Part shown: piece by piece, positions 25,587 to 35,182 of the stretch
How positions within the stretch are numbered: position 1 is the stretch's first letter
Layout of the letters: each line of letters begins with the position of its first letter
From: an uncultured cyanobacterium
GTDB lineage: Bacteria > Cyanobacteriota > Cyanobacteriia > PCC-9006 > JAAUQQ01
DNA length: 64,000 nucleotides
Direction of reading: 5' to 3'
Assembly (NCBI GenBank): GCA_963718615.1
Contig: OY970368.1
Location: 2,272,001 to 2,336,000 of the forward strand
Program-made: the position numbers and the translations under genes
The notes under the pieces: model-generated
The model's input: only the letters and a program-made list of their open reading frames with translations
Databases searched by the model: none
What the model was told of the DNA's origin: nothing

Positions 25587-27998
25587 ATGTTTAATGCTCC
25601 TATTCGTCCAGTGGCCCATACGCCTTCGGTTTCCAATTCGGGGCAATGGCATGATCTGAAAGCGCATTTGAGCGAGGTGGCGGCGGCGGCTGAGCGGTTA
25701 GCCGATAAGTTTGGTGCAGGGCGATTGGGCTATTATGCGGGGTTATGGCACGACCTGGGTAAGTACAACCCGAAGTTTCAAAGCTATTTGCAGAAATGTC
25801 ATCGAGCTTTGCAAGCAGGGCAGTCCCAGCCGAGGGAGAAGGTGCCCCATGCGATTCATGGCGCGATTTTAGCCTATGACCTCAACTGTACTTCGAGGGC
25901 GAAACTGAGCCTGTCTTTTCTGATCGCTGGTCACCATGCGGGCCTACCAAATCAGATCCGTTTGAAGTCGAACTTGAATGATCCTTCAAGGAAAGCAGAT
26001 TTTGAAATTGTCAAGCAACGGGCGATCGCCGATTTAGGCGAATTAAAGCCAAATGAAAATCTCAATCAAGTCTTTCATTCCCTGGGTTCAGATCGAATTG
26101 CAGCAGATTTATTTCTGCGACTCATTTTCTCTTGTTTAATTGATGCGGATCGCCTGGATACCGAACGATTTGCCAATCCAGAGCAATCTCAGTTGCGTCA
26201 GGCGCGAGCCAATGCCGTGACGATTGCGCAGCTTTGGCAAGTATTTGAGCAGCAACAGCAAGCATTTGTGCAATCTCCTAACCGCTCCTCTTCCCCTGTT
26301 AATGCTGTTCGGGAAGAGGTGTTTCAGCATTGCATTGGTGCGGCGAAACAGCGTCCCGGCGTTTTCCGACTCTGTGTACCGACCGGTGGTGGCAAGACGC
26401 GTAGCGGTTTAGCTTTTGCTCTCAGACATGCCCAGTTGCACGCTAAAGATCGAGTCATTTTTGCGGTGCCCTATACCAGCATTATTGAACAGACTGTGAA
26501 GGTTTACCGCGACGATATTTTTGGGGAACTGGGGCCAGACGCTGTTTTAGAACACCATAGCGCCACCCAGGTTGAGCAAAGGCTTTCTGAGGCAGAGCAA
26601 GAACAGATTGAAACCCAAGAAAATGTCGAACAGACCTCAGCCCTGGCAAAATTAGCGACACAAAATTGGGATGCAAAGCTAATTGTGACGACGACGGTTC
26701 AATTGTTTGAGAGCTTGCTGTCTCACAAACCTAAAAAATGCCGAAAATTGCACAATATTGTCAATAGCGTCATTGTTTTGGATGAAGTCCAAACGCTGCC
26801 CATTGGCTTGCTCTCACCGATCCTGTCGGTTCTAAAAGACTTAGTTAATCGCTATGGAGTCACGGTTGTACTTTGCACTGCAACTCAGCCAGCCCTGGAA
26901 GGCAGTACGCCGTACTTTCAAGACGGATTTCCCGAAGATTCAGTGCGAGATATTGTGCCCAAGGCATTGGCGATCTCCCATTTTCAAACCCTTCAACGGG
27001 TGCAGTACAACATTCCCCAACCCGATAACCCATGGACTTGGGCCAAGCTTGTCGAAGACCTTAATCCGCAGCCCTCAGCATTGGTGGTATTGAATACGCG
27101 ACGGGATGCGATCGCTCTTCTGAATGCACTGGAGGTGTCATCAGGCTACAATGCCGAGCCGATTGCTCCCAGGGTAGAAGAATCCTTGGAAAGCTCTCCG
27201 GTTCTACATCTCTCGACCTTGTTGTGTGGCAAGCATCGTCAATTGGTGCTCTCGGAGGTGCGGCGGCGGCTTCTGGCTGGGGAAGCTTGCCAGTTGATTT
27301 CGACCCAGGTGGTAGAGGCGGGCGTGGATTTGGATTTCCCGGTGGTTTATCGAGCCCTGGGGCCGCTGGATCGCATTGTTCAGGCAGCAGGGCGCTGTAA
27401 CCGTGAGGGCAAGCTTAGGAATGCCGAGGGTGAGCTGATTCCGGGGCAGGTGGTGATTTTTGAACCAGCGGAAGGCAGCAAGCCCCCGCCGGGGGAGTAT
27501 TACAAGGCGATGCAAAAGGCGCGGGAGTTTTTGCTGGCGGAGGATTTTGCAGCGGATCAACTCCATCGTCCGGAGATCTTCGAGCGGTATTTTCGAGATC
27601 TCTATGGGGTGATTGATACAAATGGCAAGGTAAAGGTGGATGGTGGAGAGACGACGATTCAGGCGCTGCGGAAGTCCTGGAGTTTTCGGGATGTGGGGGA
27701 GACCTTTAAGCTGATTAAGGATGATACACAGCCGATTGTGATTTTGTATGACGATGCGGTGGCGGAGCGGGTAGGAGCGATCGCCCATCGGGGCCTGTTC
27801 TCGGAGGATCGCGAATTTTTGCAACCCTATGTGATCAATCTCCCGAATCGAGTCTTTAATAAGTTAACCGACAGGCGGGAGGTGAAGGCGGGGCTAAATC
27901 TCTGGGTCTGGGAGGGCAACTATGATCCGATTCGTGGCTTTCCCCTGGAGAAGACTGATCAAGAAATCCAGCCTGACCCTATGTTTTTGATACAGTAG
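25587..27998 (+). CDS. cas3: CRISPR helicase/nuclease Cas3 (HD fused), type I-C
   Basis: HL, HDLGK, HH, LIDADRLDT, PTGGGKT, PYTSIIEQ, DEVQ, CTATQP, STQVVEAGVDLDF, QAAGRCNREG. Confidence 0.97.
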   Translation: MFNAPIRPVAHTPSVSNSGQWHDLKAHLSEVAAAAERLADKFGAGRLGYYAGLWHDLGKYNPKFQSYLQKCHRALQAGQSQPREKVPHAIHGAILAYDLNCTSRAKLSLSFLIAGHHAGLPNQIRLKSNLNDPSRKADFEIVKQRAIADLGELKPNENLNQVFHSLGSDRIAADLFLRLIFSCLIDADRLDTERFANPEQSQLRQARANAVTIAQLWQVFEQQQQAFVQSPNRSSSPVNAVREEVFQHCIGAAKQRPGVFRLCVPTGGGKTRSGLAFALRHAQLHAKDRVIFAVPYTSIIEQTVKVYRDDIFGELGPDAVLEHHSATQVEQRLSEAEQEQIETQENVEQTSALAKLATQNWDAKLIVTTTVQLFESLLSHKPKKCRKLHNIVNSVIVLDEVQTLPIGLLSPILSVLKDLVNRYGVTVVLCTATQPALEGSTPYFQDGFPEDSVRDIVPKALAISHFQTLQRVQYNIPQPDNPWTWAKLVEDLNPQPSALVVLNTRRDAIALLNALEVSSGYNAEPIAPRVEESLESSPVLHLSTLLCGKHRQLVLSEVRRRLLAGEACQLISTQVVEAGVDLDFPVVYRALGPLDRIVQAAGRCNREGKLRNAEGELIPGQVVIFEPAEGSKPPPGEYYKAMQKAREFLLAEDFAADQLHRPEIFERYFRDLYGVIDTNGKVKVDGGETTIQALRKSWSFRDVGETFKLIKDDTQPIVILYDDAVAERVGAIAHRGLFSEDREFLQPYVINLPNRVFNKLTDRREVKAGLNLWVWEGNYDPIRGFPLEKTDQEIQPDPMFLIQ

Positions 27999-28098
27999 CC
28001 AAACATATTGCCTGAAGTTCAGTATTTTCACGACAAAACACCCTGAAATTGCTGATTTGGGTAGAAAATATTACCGTAAGTATTAAGGATCGCACCCT

Positions 28099-28836
28099 AT
28101 GAGTGCTGAAACTCTAGCCGTGAGAGTGCAGGGGGACTTTGCCCTGTTTACTCGCCCTGAGTTTTCTGCCGAGCGTGTCAGCTACTCCGTCATGACACCC
28201 AGCGCCGCCCGAGGCATTTTGGAATCCATCTTCTGGAAGCCGGAAATGCGTTGGCGGGTGCAGAAAGTTCAGGTGCTCAAGCCCATCAAGCAGTTTTCCA
28301 TTTTGCGCAACGAGGTGAACAGTCATCAGAGCGATCGCGCTGCCAAAGCTTGGAATAGCATCGGTGATGGCTACTTTGCCGAAGACGATCGCGCCCAACG
28401 CCACAGCCTCTGCTTGCGGGATGTGGATTACGTCATTGAAGCGGCGATCGACCTCAAACCCCACGCCACAGACAATATCGCCAAATACCGCGACATGTTT
28501 CGGCGGCGGGTGCAGCGTGGTCAATGCTTCAACCAGCCCTACCTTGGGACCCGAGAATTTAGCGTGAGTCGCTTTGAACCCGCCACGGGTGAGGAAATTC
28601 CTGAGGAGTTGATCGAGCAATTGGACTTGGGCTGGATGTTGTTTGATATGGAGTTTAGTGAACAACCCAAAGGCAGCATTAGCTACTACGCCCACGATAG
28701 CAGCGGCTCCCGCGTTGCCCGAGGTGCAGCCATGCCCAAATTTTTCCACGCCCAGCTTATCAACAACGTCTTGGAAGTCCCCCAGAGCTTATACAGTCCC
28801 ATGGTTTCGCCTACTGGGACTGGAGGTCGCCGATGA
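28099..28836 (+). CDS. cas5: Type I-C Cas5c (crRNA-processing)
   Basis: GDFALFTRPE, ERVSY, TPSAARGILESIFWKP, RNEV, GQCFNQPYLGTREF. Confidence 0.97.
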   Translation: MSAETLAVRVQGDFALFTRPEFSAERVSYSVMTPSAARGILESIFWKPEMRWRVQKVQVLKPIKQFSILRNEVNSHQSDRAAKAWNSIGDGYFAEDDRAQRHSLCLRDVDYVIEAAIDLKPHATDNIAKYRDMFRRRVQRGQCFNQPYLGTREFSVSRFEPATGEEIPEELIEQLDLGWMLFDMEFSEQPKGSISYYAHDSSGSRVARGAAMPKFFHAQLINNVLEVPQSLYSPMVSPTGTGGRR

Positions 28837-30668
28837 TTTTAACAGAGTTGTATCAGCTATATCAGCGCATGGATGGTGAGCCCATGCCCGCCATGTACAA
28901 CAAGGTCAAAATTCGTTGGATGATCCCGATTAATGCCGATGGCAGTCTGCGCGGTCCGTTTTTGGACTTGAAAGGCGAAACGAACGCGGAGCAGCGCGGC
29001 AAAGAATACATCCTGCCGGATCTGGTGCGAGCGTCTGGCATCAAGCCTAAGCTGCTGGCTGACAATGGCGAGTATGTTCTGGGTCTGCAAAAAGAAGGGG
29101 CCAAGGCTGACAAAGTCTTGCAGCGCCATGAGCAGTTTCGAGCACTGGTACAACTCTGCGCGGAAGCCACTCAGGAACCCTCGGTGGAGGCGGTTTTGCG
29201 GTTCTATGGGCAGTGGAACCCTGAGGAATTTTCCCAAGAGGAGGTAGATCCTGCCGATAATTTTACCTTTGAAGTCCATGGCATTGGAGCGTGCGCTATC
29301 ATCCCTGCGAGTGCTGCTGAATCACTCGCCTCCATTCAGGATTTCTGGGCGGTCCACACCGCTAGCGCTGATAGCCCTCCCATGACCTGCCTGGTCACCG
29401 GCAAGCAAAATGTGCCCGTCGAGGCCCGACTCCCCGGCAAAATCAAAGGTGTCCCCAATGGTCAAACCGCTGGCACGTCGTTGGTCTCGGCCAATGCAGC
29501 CCCATTCAGTTCTTATGGCCTCAAAAACTCGCTGACTTCTCCTATTTCAAGAGATGCAGGTGAAGGCTTTACCAAGGCCCTCAATGGATTGCTGGCCGGT
29601 GCAAAGACTCGAATTTATCTCGGCCCGGTAGTGTATAGCTTTTGGGCGAAGGGTGACTTTGATATCGGTCTATTTAGCGAAGCTCTAGAAGAAGATCAAT
29701 CGGAAGCCTTTCGAGAGTCTTTGGCCTTTGCCCAGGATTCGCTCAATGGAGACGATGACCCGGAAGAAGTTAAAAATCTCTTTAATTCTCCCCGGTCGGG
29801 CAGTCCTCAATATGGCGTTGGTGACCAATTCTATGCACTGGGTTTGTCTGCCAGTGGCGGGCGGGCTGTGGTACGCAGTTGGATTGATGTTCCAATTGAA
29901 CAAGCCAAGCAAAATCTTGATGCTTGGTTCGAGGGACAGCGCCTGGTCAATGAATATGGGCAATACATTGACAAGCCCTATTTTCGAGTGCGGCGCTTGG
30001 TGAATAGCCTGTACCGCGATCCCGCCAAAGAGCTGGATATGCAGGGCGCAAAACTCATTGAAGTTGCGCTCAAGGGGGGTAAATTGTCCCTGGACATGCT
30101 GGCGCGGGCCGTGCGCCGAACGGCAATTGAGCATTCCATTCCCTATGCCAGAGCTGCGTTGATCAAACTCATTCTGACTACACGTCTCAAAACCCCATCC
30201 CACAATCCAATGCAAACGATGAATGAACTGAATCTTGACCCAGAATTCCAAGATCAAAGTGATACTATGGCCTACCACTGCGGGCGACTGCTAGCCCATC
30301 TGGAAAATATTCAGAAAGCAGCCTTAGGCGATATCAATACAACCTTGATCGATCGCTACTACGGCGCAGCCGCCAATACTCCTGGCAAGGTTTTTGGTGA
30401 ACTCGTCAAAGATGCTCAGGCTCACCTGCGCAAGCTGCGTGTCACAAAACCAGCCGTCCATGAGGCGCTTCAGCAAAGGCTTGAAGGTATCATGGTCAAG
30501 TTTTACTCGGCAGAACATTTCCCGACGACGCTGACGATGCAGCAGCAAAGCATTTTTTCCCTGGGCTATTACCACCAGCGGGCGGCAAACCGTAAAGAAG
30601 CGATCGATCGTAAAGCGGCCAATGCCGAAGCCAAGGCGGCAAAAGCTGCGGCAAAAGCTTCAGAGTGA
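28833..30668 (+). CDS. cas8c: Type I-C Cas8c/Csd1 large subunit
   Basis: RASGIKPKLLADNGEYVLG, CLVTG, SLVSANAAPFSSYG, AYHCGRLLA, DRYYGAA, FSLGYYHQR. ATGA overlap with cas5. Confidence 0.95.
   Translation: MILTELYQLYQRMDGEPMPAMYNKVKIRWMIPINADGSLRGPFLDLKGETNAEQRGKEYILPDLVRASGIKPKLLADNGEYVLGLQKEGAKADKVLQRHEQFRALVQLCAEATQEPSVEAVLRFYGQWNPEEFSQEEVDPADNFTFEVHGIGACAIIPASAAESLASIQDFWAVHTASADSPPMTCLVTGKQNVPVEARLPGKIKGVPNGQTAGTSLVSANAAPFSSYGLKNSLTSPISRDAGEGFTKALNGLLAGAKTRIYLGPVVYSFWAKGDFDIGLFSEALEEDQSEAFRESLAFAQDSLNGDDDPEEVKNLFNSPRSGSPQYGVGDQFYALGLSASGGRAVVRSWIDVPIEQAKQNLDAWFEGQRLVNEYGQYIDKPYFRVRRLVNSLYRDPAKELDMQGAKLIEVALKGGKLSLDMLARAVRRTAIEHSIPYARAALIKLILTTRLKTPSHNPMQTMNELNLDPEFQDQSDTMAYHCGRLLAHLENIQKAALGDINTTLIDRYYGAAANTPGKVFGELVKDAQAHLRKLRVTKPAVHEALQQRLEGIMVKFYSAEHFPTTLTMQQQSIFSLGYYHQRAANRKEAIDRKAANAEAKAAKAAAKASE
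30210..30668 (+). CDS. cas11: Putative internally translated Cas11c small subunit
   Basis: In-frame ATGs at 30210 and 30219 after a C/A-rich linker, ahead of the AYxCGRL domain. Internal Cas11 translation from cas8c is established for type I-C. Confidence 0.55.
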   Translation: MQTMNELNLDPEFQDQSDTMAYHCGRLLAHLENIQKAALGDINTTLIDRYYGAAANTPGKVFGELVKDAQAHLRKLRVTKPAVHEALQQRLEGIMVKFYSAEHFPTTLTMQQQSIFSLGYYHQRAANRKEAIDRKAANAEAKAAKAAAKASE

Positions 30669-30730
30669 TCCATCCCTTAAATACGGCCTCTTTTCCCTTC
30701 AATTCACGTCAACAAATTAGGACTTAAACC

Positions 30731-31645
30731 ATGAGCGCTCATCTTAACCCTGAAGCACGCCACGACTTTGTTTTACTGTTTGATATTCAAGATGGGAATC
30801 CTAATGGCGATCCAGATGGTGGCAATCTGCCGAGAACGGATCCAGAAACCATGGAGGGCTTGGTGACTGACGTTTGTCTCAAGCGCAAAATTCGGAATTA
30901 TGTGGATGCGATCGCAGGTGATACCGCCCCCAATTTGATCTACATCCAAAATAAAGGGATTGCCCTCAATGACATGCATACCCGAGCCTACGAAGGCTTA
31001 GGGATTAAGGCAACGGGGACGAAGCAAAAGCGTGAGGACGTTAATCAAGCACGCCAGTGGATGTGTCAAAACTTCTACGATATTCGTATGTTTGGGGCTG
31101 TGATGACTACCGGAGTAAACTGTGGCCAGGTGCGTGGCCCGATTCAATTGACATTTTCTCGCTCCCAAGACCCGATCATGCCTCTCGATGTCGCAATTAC
31201 TAGAATTGCAATTACCAAGCCGGAAGATGCTGCGGTTCAGGTTAGCGAAGAGGGTAAGGGTGAGGGGGGTAAGACGACTGAGATTGGCCGCAAAGCGCTC
31301 ATTCCCTACGGTCTCTATCGGGGTCATGGCTTTTATTCGCCCCATCTAGCAGCACAAACGGGGGTTACCGAGGCGGACTTGCAGCTCTTTTGGGATGCGC
31401 TGATCAACATGTGGGACTTTGATCGCTCCGCCAGTCGGGGACTAATGGCTCCTCGGGGTCTCTATGTGTTTAGCCATGAGTCTAAGCTGGGCAATGCCCC
31501 GGCCCACAAGCTATTTGAGCATTTGCAGATTAAGCTTAAACCAGGTGTCTCAGCCCCCAGACAGTTTAGCGATTATCAGATCACTGACCTTGAGCAAGAA
31601 ACTTGGCCCACCGGAATTAGCCTGACAATCTTGACCCAGGGATAG
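30731..31645 (+). CDS. cas7: Type I-C Cas7/Csd2
   Basis: DGNPNGDPD, PRTD, TDVCLKRKIRNY, FYDIRMFGAV, GQVRGPIQ, YGLY, DRSASRG, GNAPAHKLF. Confidence 0.97.
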   Translation: MSAHLNPEARHDFVLLFDIQDGNPNGDPDGGNLPRTDPETMEGLVTDVCLKRKIRNYVDAIAGDTAPNLIYIQNKGIALNDMHTRAYEGLGIKATGTKQKREDVNQARQWMCQNFYDIRMFGAVMTTGVNCGQVRGPIQLTFSRSQDPIMPLDVAITRIAITKPEDAAVQVSEEGKGEGGKTTEIGRKALIPYGLYRGHGFYSPHLAAQTGVTEADLQLFWDALINMWDFDRSASRGLMAPRGLYVFSHESKLGNAPAHKLFEHLQIKLKPGVSAPRQFSDYQITDLEQETWPTGISLTILTQG

Positions 31646-31692
31646 CGCTGAATGAAGTCTGTTTAATGTCTTGAATATCAACGTGTGAAAGC

Positions 31693-31923
31693 ATGACAAC
31701 ACTCACCCGCATTACTTGGAATCCTGAAATTATGGGGGGTAAGCCCTGTATCCGAGGGTTGCGCGTTACCGTCAGCACGATTCTCGGGCTGTTGGCGGTC
31801 GGTCGCACGACTGACGAAATTCTGAAGGCTTATCCTTACTTGGAACTGGATGATATCCAGGAGTCCTTAGCCTATGCCGCTTGGCGTGTTGATGAAGCAG
31901 AAGTTCCGCTTCAGATGGTATGA
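31693..31923 (+). CDS. DUF433 protein (putative antitoxin)
   Basis: RITWNPEIMGGKPCIRGLRVTV...EILKAYPYLE..DI..YAA. Confidence 0.9.
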   Translation: MTTLTRITWNPEIMGGKPCIRGLRVTVSTILGLLAVGRTTDEILKAYPYLELDDIQESLAYAAWRVDEAEVPLQMV

Positions 31924-32294
31924 AGATTCTGATTGATATGAATCTTCCTCCGAGTTGGGTGGATGCCTTTGCGCTTGAAGGGATAGAGGCGGTGCATTGG
32001 TCTTCGATTGGGGATATCAGGGCGAGCGATCGCACCCTCATGCAATGGGCTAAAGAGAATGGACATATTGTCTTTACTCACGACTTAGACTTTGGGGCAA
32101 TCTTGGCAGCGACCCAGGCGGATTCGCCCAGCGTGTTTCAGGTGAGAACTCAGGATAGTTTTCCTGAGGAAATTGGAGCAATTGTTTTTGCAGCCTTGCG
32201 ACAATTTGAAGCTGAGTTATCCGCTGGGGCATTAGTTACCATTAACCCTCAGCAGGCTAGGGCACGTATTTTACCGATTGGTCGTTCTAAATAA
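31920..32294 (+). CDS. DUF5615 PIN-like protein (putative toxin)
   Basis: MKILIDMNL, HWS, D..LMQWA, VFTHDLDFG, PSV. ATGA overlap with DUF433. Confidence 0.88.
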   Translation: MKILIDMNLPPSWVDAFALEGIEAVHWSSIGDIRASDRTLMQWAKENGHIVFTHDLDFGAILAATQADSPSVFQVRTQDSFPEEIGAIVFAALRQFEAELSAGALVTINPQQARARILPIGRSK

Positions 32295-32593
32295 TGACTT
32301 CTATGGTTGAAGTTGATGATTATCTAATGATTAGTGCCTTACAGCACTATGCCTATTGCCCGCGCCAATGTGCGCTAATTCATGTTGAAAAAACCTGGGA
32401 TGAGAACCTCTACACCATGCGGGGCAACCGCGTTCATGAGGTTGTCAATATCCCAGAGGATGAGCTGATCGATGGGGTGCGGGTGGAGCGGGCCATGCCA
32501 TTGATTGAGTCTTGTTTGCCCTATGCCTTGCAGGGGTTTCCATCATCTACCCGAAAGCATGATCTATTCGCTGTGGCTGATGACCCAGATTAA
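32294..32593 (+). pseudogene. cas4: Cas4 with large in-frame internal deletion
   Basis: N-terminal ISALQHYAYCPRQCALIH..GNRVH..ERAMPL joins directly to C-terminal IESCLP. The nuclease D/E/K motifs and the CxxC pair are missing; only 99 aa. Confidence 0.85.
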
Positions 32594-32596
32594 TCC

Positions 32597-33184
32597 GTGA
32601 AACAAATTCTCAATACGCTCTATGTTCAAACCCAGGGAACTTATCTGCGGTTGGATCATGAAACGTTGAAGTTAGAGTTCGAAAAGGAAGTCAAATTCCA
32701 GGTGCCGCTGCATCATTTGGGTGGCATTGTGACGTTTGGCAATGTGTTGGTCAGTCCATTTTTGCTGCATCGCTGTGGGGAGGATGGGCGATCGCTCGTT
32801 TGGCTGACCCAAAATGGGCGGTTTAAGGCCAGGTTGGCAGGGCCAACCACAGGCAATGTGCTGTTGCGTCGGGCGCAGCATGGGGCGGTTGGGGATATCG
32901 GGGCGGGGCTGGCGATCGCGCGCTGTATGGTGGCGGGCAAGCTGCAAAATACGCGGGCGGTGGTGATGCGAGCGGCGCGAGAAGCCAAGGTGGAAGCAGA
33001 CAGGGCTGCGCTAAGGGCGACGGCGAAGGTGTTGGCGGATGGCATTGGCAATGCCCAAATGGCGGTAGATGTGGACCAATTGAGGGGCATTGAGGGCTTT
33101 GGAGCGCGGGCCTATTTTGGTAGTTTTAGTGCGATGGTGCGTAGCAATCGGGAGGATTTTGCGATGGAGGGGCGATCGAAACGG
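32597..33184 (+). pseudogene. cas1: Cas1 (type I-C), truncated at about codon 196
   Basis: ILNTLYVQTQG, GNVLLRRAQ, GKLQN, LRGIEG, FAMEGRSKR, then out-of-frame read-through into cas2. The RPP..VNA C-terminal catalytic half is absent. Confidence 0.9.
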
Positions 33185-33441
33185 AAACGAAGGCGGGGCG
33201 ACGGCGGTTGCGGCAGGTGGCGACGATTTGCAAGGATTTTGGCCAGCGGGTGCAGATGTCGGTGTTTGAATGTCGGGTGGATGAGATGCAGTATGAGCGG
33301 TTGCAGGCCAGACTGTTGAAGACGATTGATCCGAAGCTGGATAATTTGCGGTTTTATAAGTTGCTGGGGGGGCGGGAAAAGGGGGTTGAGGCGTTTGGGA
33401 TTGATAGGTATGTGGATTTTGATGAGCCGCTGATTTTGTAG
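33178..33441 (+). pseudogene. cas2: Cas2 lacking its N-terminus
   Basis: ETETKAGRRRLRQVATICKDFGQRVQMSVFEC...DNLRFY. No start codon or YD motif upstream in this frame. Confidence 0.9.
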
Positions 33442-33641
33442 GAAGTTTTATGTTTAAGGAATTTGATGGGATCGCGAATGGGGAGTGAGGGATGTTGGGT
33501 CGGGATGTTCGCGATCGCTTGTGATGTGGGGATTTGAATCTTTCTATGTGTGAAATTTATGGGTTGTCAGGACAGGGGGATCGGGGGTCCGCGAAGAGAT
33601 GGCTTAAAAAGCTTGTGCTGTAAGGCTTTACAATGACAGCT
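33442..33641 (+). promoter_or_regulatory. CRISPR leader
   Basis: 200-bp non-coding stretch between cas2 and the first repeat. Contains an inverted pair TCGCGAA...TTCGCGA and a further CCGCGAA, reminiscent of type I-C leader motifs. Confidence 0.75.
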
Positions 33642-35182
33642 GTTGCGATCGCCTTTCGGGGCGATCGAGGATTGGAACAAAAAAGCACAGGTTGGCCTAG
33701 CAAGGCAGAAGGTTGCGATCGCCTTTCGGGGCGATCGAGGATTGGAACCCTAACTTCAAGTCTAAGTCTGATAAGCAGTCGAGTTGCGATCGCCTTTCGG
33801 GGCGATCGAGGATTGGAACCGGTAAAACGTAGGAGCAGATATAAGGCTGGGGCGTTGCGATCGCCTTTCGGGGCGATCGAGGATTGGAACCGAGAATCGT
33901 ACGAATTCGGAGCTATCAGCAGAGGTTGCGATCGCCTTTCGGGGCGATCGAGGATTGGAACCAGTATTTGAGAAGCAGGCGATAATTAAAAGACGTTGCG
34001 ATCGCCTTTCGGGGCGATCGAGGATTGGAACATAGTTTTGATTGACACCAACGACGGCAAGTCTGGTTGCGATCGCCTTTCGGGGCGATCGAGGATTGGA
34101 ACAGTTGCAAAGCAGGTTGCTGGCCAGTGTTTGGCCCAGTTGCGATCGCCTTTCGGGGCGATCGAGGATTGGAACAGGAGTGCGAGGCATGCTGAGGTCT
34201 GGCCTAAGTTGTTGCGATCGCCTTTCGGGGCGATCGAGGATTGGAACTCCCTACAAGCTACCCGCGAGGAAGACTGGCAAAGTTGCGATCGCCTTTCGGG
34301 GCGATCGAGGATTGGAACTTTGAAAGCAGGAGAGATTAATGGTTGCATGCTGGTTGCGATCGCCTTTCGGGGCGATCGAGGATTGGAACACCCAAGGGAT
34401 TGTATTTCTAATAATCTGGGCAAGTTGCGATCGCCTTTCGGGGCGATCGAGGATTGGAACTACAGCAGCGGTTGGATCAACACCAAATCCCCAGTCGTTG
34501 CGATCGCCTTTCGGGGCGATCGAGGATTGGAACCGCCAGGGCACCAGATCAACGATCGCTCAGCACTGTTGCGATCGCCTTTCGGGGCGATCGAGGATTG
34601 GAACAGCTAATCCGCTGGGCAGCCCATGGCTTGCTCAAGTTGCGATCGCCTTTCGGGGCGATCGAGGATTGGAACGGATCGTAAAAAACCTGGGCCTAAC
34701 GCCCTATGGTATCTCCCAGGTTGCGATCGCCTTTCGGGGCGATCGAGGATTGGAACTCCCCAGCGGCGCGAACGTGGGAAATGTCGTAAGGTTGCGATCG
34801 CCTTTCGGGGCGATCGAGGATTGGAACGCTCAAGGGTAAACCCATTGGCGGCATGAGATCGGTTGCGATCGCCTTTCGGGGCGATCGAGGATTGGAACCT
34901 CTCAGATCTACAGGATGCGGCGATCGCCAAGTTGCGATCGCCTTTCGGGGCGATCGAGGATTGGAACCCGATGACCCTAATCGTCGGCGAGCAATTAATG
35001 TAGGTTGCGATCGCCTTTCGGGGCGATCGAGGATTGGAACGTTCGTAATGAAACCTTTTGGGCCGTATGCATATAGTTGCGATCGCCTTTCGGGGCGATC
35101 GAGGATTGGAACAACACCTTGGCACATCTTGGGAATAGCTCAGGCGTTGCGATCGCCTTTCGGGGCGATCGAGGATTGGAAC
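33642..35182 (+). CRISPR. CRISPR array: 22 repeats (37 bp, GTTGCGATCGCCTTTCGGGGCGATCGAGGATTGGAAC) and 21 spacers
   Basis: Counted by hand; all repeats identical. Spacers are 32-36 bp except one of 44 bp. Confidence 0.99.

Follow-up and report, generated by a model that had tools for sequence, protein, structure and literature searches.

Canonical type I-C (Dvulg/Csd) CRISPR-Cas systems, among them the locus of genome G021 (G021:C23, L027) and the Moorella loci L036-L038, are organized in the common gene order cas3-cas5c-cas8c-cas7-cas4-cas1-cas2-leader-array without cas6, and have hairpin repeats ending in GAGGATTGGAAC or GAGGATTGAAAC and a leader of about 170-200 nucleotides (nt) with conserved boxes. 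We describe here a locus with these same features in a 64,000-nt stretch of DNA from an uncultured cyanobacterium (positions 2,272,001 to 2,336,000 of contig OY970368.1, assembly GCA_963718615.1), referred to below as the window. It is a canonical type I-C CRISPR-Cas locus that differs from these in that two deletions have broken its adaptation genes, cas4, cas1, and cas2. The reading that we favor from the sequence, with a probability of roughly 0.6, is that the locus is now an interference-only system with a frozen memory of 21 spacers, and represents the first step of ordinary erosion.

Interference without adaptation genes is a known and ordinary state, of which the window is one more instance. 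Neutral loss of cas genes is described in excerpts of PMC7145637, as are loci whose adaptation modules are shared or absent, and an excerpt of PMC12669027 attributes such sharing or absence to many loci. Adaptation genes are reported to be borrowed by type IV-A3 systems with I-E, by VI-B with II-C, and by many type III loci. These borrowing systems are like the window in having an effector and an array without a cognate Cas1-Cas2 of their own, but they share repeat and leader features with their donor, whereas the sole possible donor for the window differs from it in repeat and shows no relation to it in leader. Type I-C CRISPR-associated transposons, which are named in an excerpt of PMC12669027, also combine a I-C effector with the lack of a working adaptation module. 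A reading of the locus as one of these was rejected, as cas3 is intact and the flanking genes (copA, encoding a copper ATPase, and a TPR gene upstream, sbcC downstream, and also M28 peptidase and PFK genes) are not of the Tn7 type.

Two deletions in the adaptation genes

The window lies on a closed chromosome of 6.10 Mb, a single contig scored as 100% complete, and its open reading frames (ORFs) were scanned with family profiles (Pfam, and TIGR models with curated cut-offs). The type I-C genes lie on the + strand in the order cas3-cas5c-cas8c-cas7-[cargo pair]-cas4-cas1-cas2-leader-array. To size the deletions we used contigs of a close relative from three public metagenome runs in two studies (X1-X3), which are 96-99% identical to the window over 31473-33439 and carry cas4, cas1, and cas2 whole; the intact cyanobacterial type I-C locus of G021 served as a second reference. 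The remaining pieces are as follows:

32294-32593, + strand: cas4 remnant, 99 amino acids (aa), matching positions 3-40 only of the 160 in Pfam Cas4 (PF01930)
32597-33184, + strand: cas1 remnant, codons 1-196 of about 343
33181-33184, + strand: junction of a 484-nt deletion, a 4-nt microhomology (ACGG) at which cas1 codon 196 is joined to cas2 codon 11
33181-33441, + strand: cas2 remnant, residues 11-96, its own start and the first strand missing, matching PF09827 positions 11-66 of 74

The deletion in cas4, at 32499/32500, is 348 nt long, equal to 116 codons, and keeps the frame; one base is shared at the junction, and about residues 69-184 of a 215-aa protein are taken out. It is most directly seen in X2 contig 12, in which positions 1-509 correspond to 31991-32499 and positions 857-953 to 32499-32595, with 348 extra nt in between. 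The comparison with G021 gives a similar picture, as the window Cas4 aligns over residues 1-67 and then directly, in frame, to the last 30 or so residues, while the alignment covers residues 1-199 of Cas1 and begins at residue 9 of Cas2. A CxxC pair visible in the Cas4 of G021 and in a loose end of the relative is gone in the window.

The second deletion removes the last 147 or so codons of cas1, the intergenic spacer, and the first 10 codons of cas2, and it shifts the frame, such that cas1 codon 196 is fused out of frame to cas2 codon 11. In X3 contig 20, positions 1-420 correspond to 32765-33184 and positions 901-1159 to 33181-33439, and X2 contigs have loose ends at 33181 and 33184. The unaligned ends of the relative's contigs read as the missing pieces: Cas4 continues with LWSHR... 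after ...AMP and resumes from ...RCPDCS, Cas1 goes on with PPKDPINALL, and Cas2 starts VDVLVTYDVN. The ORF that starts as cas1 (32597-33319, 240 aa) runs for its last 44 codons out of frame through cas2 DNA, and in a set of 5.8 billion proteins a search for a sister allele of this ORF returned the window's own protein only, the next best being 70% identical. The Cas1 stub matches positions 1-195 of 340 in TIGR03640 (Cas1c) with 228 bits, below the cut-off of 385, and covers positions 1-183 of 283 in PF01867. A HIP1 palindrome was considered as a breakpoint and rejected, since the junction is placed at ACGG, 5 nt downstream.

We take the metal-binding His and Asp of Cas1 to sit in the C-terminal catalytic half of the protein, which is lost here, and presumably the first strand of Cas2 has been lost together with its Asp, and the RecB-type nuclease core of Cas4 together with two of the four cluster cysteines. 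The components of a functional Cas4-Cas1-Cas2 module, namely a full-length Cas1, a Cas2 with its start, and a Cas4 with nuclease core and cysteines, are all missing. With the catalytic half of Cas1, the first strand of Cas2, and the core of Cas4 gone, the predicted products of the locus's own adaptation module cannot integrate new spacers.

An initial annotation, made from the letters of the window alone, had described cas4, cas1, and cas2 as broken by two deletions with junctions near 32500 and 33180, and as free of stops and frameshifts up to these points. The relative's contigs agree with both junctions and place one deletion within cas4 and the other from cas1 to cas2, and there are indeed no stops (0) and no frameshifts (0) before either junction. 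The start at 31693 given there for the segment was wrong, as 31693-32294 is a cargo pair of DUF433 and PIN-like genes and cas4 begins at 32294.

The remaining type I-C components

The effector genes precede the deletions:

25587-27998, + strand: cas3 (HD nuclease and helicase), 803 aa, full length; TIGR01596 108 bits, TIGR01587 107 bits (cut-offs 43 and 102)
28099-28836, + strand: cas5c (the pre-crRNA-processing Cas5 of type I-C, crRNA being CRISPR RNA), 245 aa; TIGR01876 147 bits, cut-off 85
28833-30668, + strand: cas8c/csd1, the subtype signature gene, 611 aa; TIGR01863 330 bits, cut-off 218.65, profile positions 1-582 of 588 covered; PF09709 expect value (E) 2e-121
30731-31645, + strand: cas7/csd2, 304 aa; TIGR02589 318 bits, cut-off 182, profile positions 1-281 of 284

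The coverage of the family models from 25587 to 31645 supports the description of all four genes as full length in the initial annotation. At conserved alignment columns, Cas3 has no deviations (0 of 116, 29 aligned sequences), nor does Cas7 (0 of 90), while Cas8c deviates at 3 of 47 and Cas5c at 6 of 60, three of these being common to the nearest relatives (L032/L034). Scanning of 10 ORFs between 22383 and 33319 turned up no Cas6. Cyanobacterial genes are the nearest relatives of the window's cas genes, and GCGATCGC palindromes are frequent in the sequence.

The contigs of the close relative are not uniformly similar to the window. In segments over cas3 and cas8c (25766-30565) 38 of 471, 8 of 176, 13 of 175, and 15 of 213 bases differ, which is a lower similarity than in the cargo pair together with cas4 (11 of 878), and its leader diverges from that of the window directly after the cas2 stop, at 33439. 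This uneven divergence suggests either a faster evolution of effector genes and leader or a recombination boundary.

Downstream of cas2 are the leader and the array:

33442-33641, + strand: leader of 200 nt that contains three boxes of the CGCGA/TCGCG type
about 33473-33478, 33509-33515, and 33590-33592, + strand: the leader boxes, the same in all 6 of the I-C leaders aligned
33642-35182, + strand: CRISPR array, 22 identical 37-nt repeats (0 mismatches) and 21 unique spacers

The leader and the 22 identical repeats had both been noted in the initial annotation. The six aligned leaders are those of the window, G021, three Clostridia/Moorella-group loci, and one proteobacterial locus, and the boxes are candidate sites for integration or for a host factor. 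Twenty of the spacers are 32-36 nt in length; spacer 15 (34676-34719) is 44 nt, which may reflect an irregular acquisition event or else a small insertion. The predicted fold of the repeat is a 9-bp stem with a 4-nt loop and an 11-nt 3' tail (-15.4 kcal/mol, z -2.5), and the tail is common to the window, G021, and Moorella repeats. Its length matches that of the crRNA 5' handle in type I-C systems. Cleavage of hairpin repeats by Cas5 (Cas5d) in type I-C is described in an excerpt of PMC11903412. Among repeat families there is a weak match to CRISPR-DR9, with 28.5 bits, below the gathering score of 45. The stem of each repeat (first repeat 33642-33678) is made up of two HIP1-like palindromes containing CGATCG, and according to an excerpt of PMC6604393 such palindrome sites are methylated in a Synechocystis type I-D CRISPR repeat.

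Searches with the array yielded little. Against their own genome the 21 spacers had only partial matches (blastn-short), with 22 of 24 nt at an E of 0.025 as the best, and the whole array gave one weak match in 50,697 phage records (E 0.5) and two in 72,556 plasmids, one of them repeat-periodic and the other with an E of 0.4. In 400 genomes of the same class the long matches were arrays with related repeats, the short matches that we mapped lay on repeats or repeat-spacer borders, and no convincing protospacer was found. In metagenome contigs the exact repeat had 0 matches, and a search for Cas8c gave 33 pattern matches and 0 relatives.

Genomic and comparative setting of the loss

The relative with intact genes is very close to the window, differing at 11 of 878 bases in the cargo pair plus cas4, and at 27 of 686 in 32499-33184. 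Within the Cas1 stub 20 codons differ, 11 of them synonymously and 9 non-synonymously. All nine non-synonymous differences are in columns that are variable among 119 homologues, and at the two better conserved of these the window carries the majority residue. Among the same homologues 94 columns are conserved to 90% or more; the stub deviates at none of them, and the median homologue at two. The stubs are thus without detectable damage since their death, and the comparison supports a recent loss of adaptation, as had been proposed in the initial annotation: a 96-99% identical relative is intact, and the Cas1 stub has 0 of 94 deviations. An excerpt of PMC12669027 states that arrays no longer acquiring spacers tend to gain repeat substitutions, and the 22 identical repeats therefore fit a recent stop of acquisition.

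How common such losses are was surveyed with Cas7 as bait, which recovered 38 type I-C loci from species-representative genomes, 8 of which end too early to judge. Of the 30 evaluable loci, 27 have full tblastn coverage of Cas4, Cas1, and Cas2, and three do not. L061 lacks the N-terminal half of Cas1 with its effector genes covered; L069 has no cas4, a cas1 with both a truncation and a frameshift, and fragmented effector genes as well; and L034 has frameshifts in cas1, cas3, and cas7, although L061 and L034 are low-coverage bins in which errors are possible. L061 and L069 are like the window in that adaptation genes were lost by deletion with the array remaining, and in L061 the effector genes remain too. 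The window differs from these loci in having a very recent event that can be dated against an intact, near-identical allele, and in the survival of a long 21-spacer array with perfect repeats; the effector genes of L069 and L034, moreover, are broken. A few shortened Cas1c proteins, P0080 and P0022 for example, are present in the 5.8-billion-protein set. The genus of the window is absent among the species genomes compared, and the locus was found in none of the seven genomes of the same family (0 of 7).

The initial annotation had called for a search for other adaptation genes and for arrays with the same repeat. Throughout the 6.1-Mb genome Cas1 is matched twice and Cas2 twice, each time by the remnant described here and by an intact gene at 5.22 Mb that belongs to a type III cas1-cas2 pair. 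No second Cas4 was found genome-wide, the sole match being the remnant in the window, and the I-C repeat is nowhere else in the genome. A k-mer scan located three further arrays: one of 51 repeats at 2.19 Mb, adjoining Cmr-type genes without cas1-cas2, and, at 5.21-5.22 Mb, two more with 72-73 and 33 repeats, which neighbor Cas10/Cmr4/Csm6-like genes as well as the intact cas1-cas2. The type III and I-C repeats match at about 17-18 of 37 positions, and the type III Cas1 is 29% identical to the Cas1c stub. When the I-C leader was aligned with the type III leaders the scores were 20 and 19, against shuffle means of 15.4 and 16.1, and these scores were reached by 11 and 28 of 200 shuffles. As a positive control, two type III leaders scored 59 against each other, with a shuffle mean of 18.8 and none of 200 shuffles reaching 59. 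These two alike leaders are:

G000:C1:2190099-2190299: leader of the 51-repeat type III array
G000:C1:5224420-5224620: leader of the type III array adjoining cas1-cas2

Their likeness suggests that the 51-repeat array may be served in trans by the cas1-cas2 at 5.22 Mb. Spacer 43 of the 51-repeat array (G000:C1:2193474-2193510) matches its own chromosome at 2569020-2569056 over 37 of 37 nt, inside a + strand open frame of 510 codons; it has the same sense as the frame, and its crRNA would therefore not pair with that mRNA.

Between cas7 and cas4 the window carries two small genes:

31693-31923, + strand: DUF433 gene, 76 aa; PF04255 E 8e-25
31920-32294, + strand: DUF5615/PIN-like gene, 124 aa; PF18480 E 5e-23, PF18478 E 2e-6

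As judged by its families the pair is like a toxin-antitoxin module. The close relative carries it too, and L039 has it in the corresponding slot, accompanied by DUF29, whereas G021 has a Uma2 endonuclease gene in this slot. Unrelated small cargo recurs in the cas7-cas4 gap of type I-C loci, including Uma2 endonuclease (three loci), an RHH and PIN pair, Fic, a YhcG PDDEXK nuclease, Bro-N, and DUF4258. From these gene contents, the gap, located as follows, looks like an insertion hotspot inside the cas operon for toxin-antitoxin-like and nuclease genes:

window: 31693-32294
L039: 10950-11997
L027: 9726-10334
L034: 8197-8817
L045: 10878-11531
L054: 11402-12059
L059: 11079-12458
L063: 10936-12156
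L066: 11140-11979
L042: 11002-11196

Weighing the readings

In the reading that we prefer, two small deletions with junction homologies of one and four bases would have hit a canonical type I-C locus shortly before sampling. The leader would still drive a pre-crRNA, which Cas5c would cut at the repeat hairpins, and a Cas5c-Cas8c-Cas7 complex would carry 21 fixed guides, with Cas3 degrading DNA that matches them. We infer from their sequences that the remaining I-C parts are structurally competent. Several observations weigh against this. Three of the Cas5c changes at conserved columns (positions 43, 57, and 223) are specific to the window, albeit conservative. No spacer target was identified in the own genome, phages, plasmids, or class genomes searched. 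A consensus promoter scan found four sites against a shuffle mean of 7.9, and promoter and terminator sites taken together are fewer than in shuffles. Finally, no contig in four public runs (X1-X4) spans the deletion junctions in the deleted form; the short X4 contigs are 99-100% identical to the window, and none of them crosses 32499 or 33181.

This last observation would also be expected if the deletions were assembly errors or had arisen only in the sequenced culture, which we regard as the least credible of the explanations. The deleted DNA is unique and its flanks share only one and four bases, such that there is nothing for an assembler to collapse; a single closed 6.1-Mb contig, scored as 100% complete, makes up the genome; and the reading frames are clean up to the break at both junctions. 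It is scarcely more probable that the intact Cas1-Cas2 at 5.22 Mb inserts spacers into the I-C array, an option that had been left open in the initial annotation. Such a pair is present in the genome, the 51-repeat type III array without cas1 has a leader related to that of the array adjoining cas1-cas2, and experimental cases of cross-type adaptation sharing are reported in excerpts of PMC8092290 and bioRxiv 10.1101/2023.06.23.546257. The evidence at the I-C locus itself points the other way, in that the available Cas1 is distant from the stub, the repeats match at only about half of their positions, the likeness of the leaders is at shuffle level, and there is no Cas4 to select spacers compatible with the protospacer-adjacent motif. 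Supply of the I-C array from another locus in the genome is thus unlikely on sequence grounds.

Plain decay, in which the I-C system was already silent or useless and the deletions are simply its first visible lesions, is a more serious alternative, and one that we consider possible but doubtful. The lack of spacer targets is in keeping with it, as are the fragmented effector genes in two of the three other broken I-C loci (L034 and L069), and an excerpt of PMC7145637 describes neutral loss of unexpressed cas clusters. Moreover, the Cas1 stub, although certainly dead, shows no more wear than cas3 and cas7, and the intact effector genes may simply have lacked the time to decay. For this reason a selective loss of adaptation, which the initial annotation had claimed together with its recency, is not shown; the conserved-column test cannot separate genes that are maintained from those that have not yet decayed. 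Against plain decay, both lesions are in adaptation genes with none in 6.1 kb of effector genes, and no flaw is seen in the leader boxes, in the hairpin repeat, or in any of the 22 repeats. The adaptation genes make up about 1.98 kb of an ancestral locus of 10.4 kb, or of 8.0 kb of cas coding sequence (about 19-25%), and the probability that both of two deletions fall within them is about 0.04-0.06 before allowing for the choice of locus, a value that has to be discounted because the locus was picked for looking like an adaptation-only loss. A further, improbable proposal is that the loss of adaptation was selected rather than accidental and that an interference-only module is actively kept as a fixed-memory defence. 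Cas4 would then, for example, have been lost first, leading to error-prone or self-directed acquisition, such that a second hit in cas1-cas2 was favored, and the embedded DUF433/PIN-like pair may act as an addiction module.

We therefore return to the interference-only system with a frozen memory, taken as an early stage of ordinary erosion and not as a state arrived at by design. The finding leaves existing knowledge unchanged, in that loci without working adaptation genes are common. What the locus would add is a picture of CRISPR erosion at its first step, well dated, in which both lesions are sized to the base and the leader, repeats, and effector genes were still perfect at the time at which it was taken. 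The strain would thereby provide a natural test of how long an interference-only type I-C system stays active, and of whether a co-resident type III Cas1-Cas2 can serve a type I-C array.

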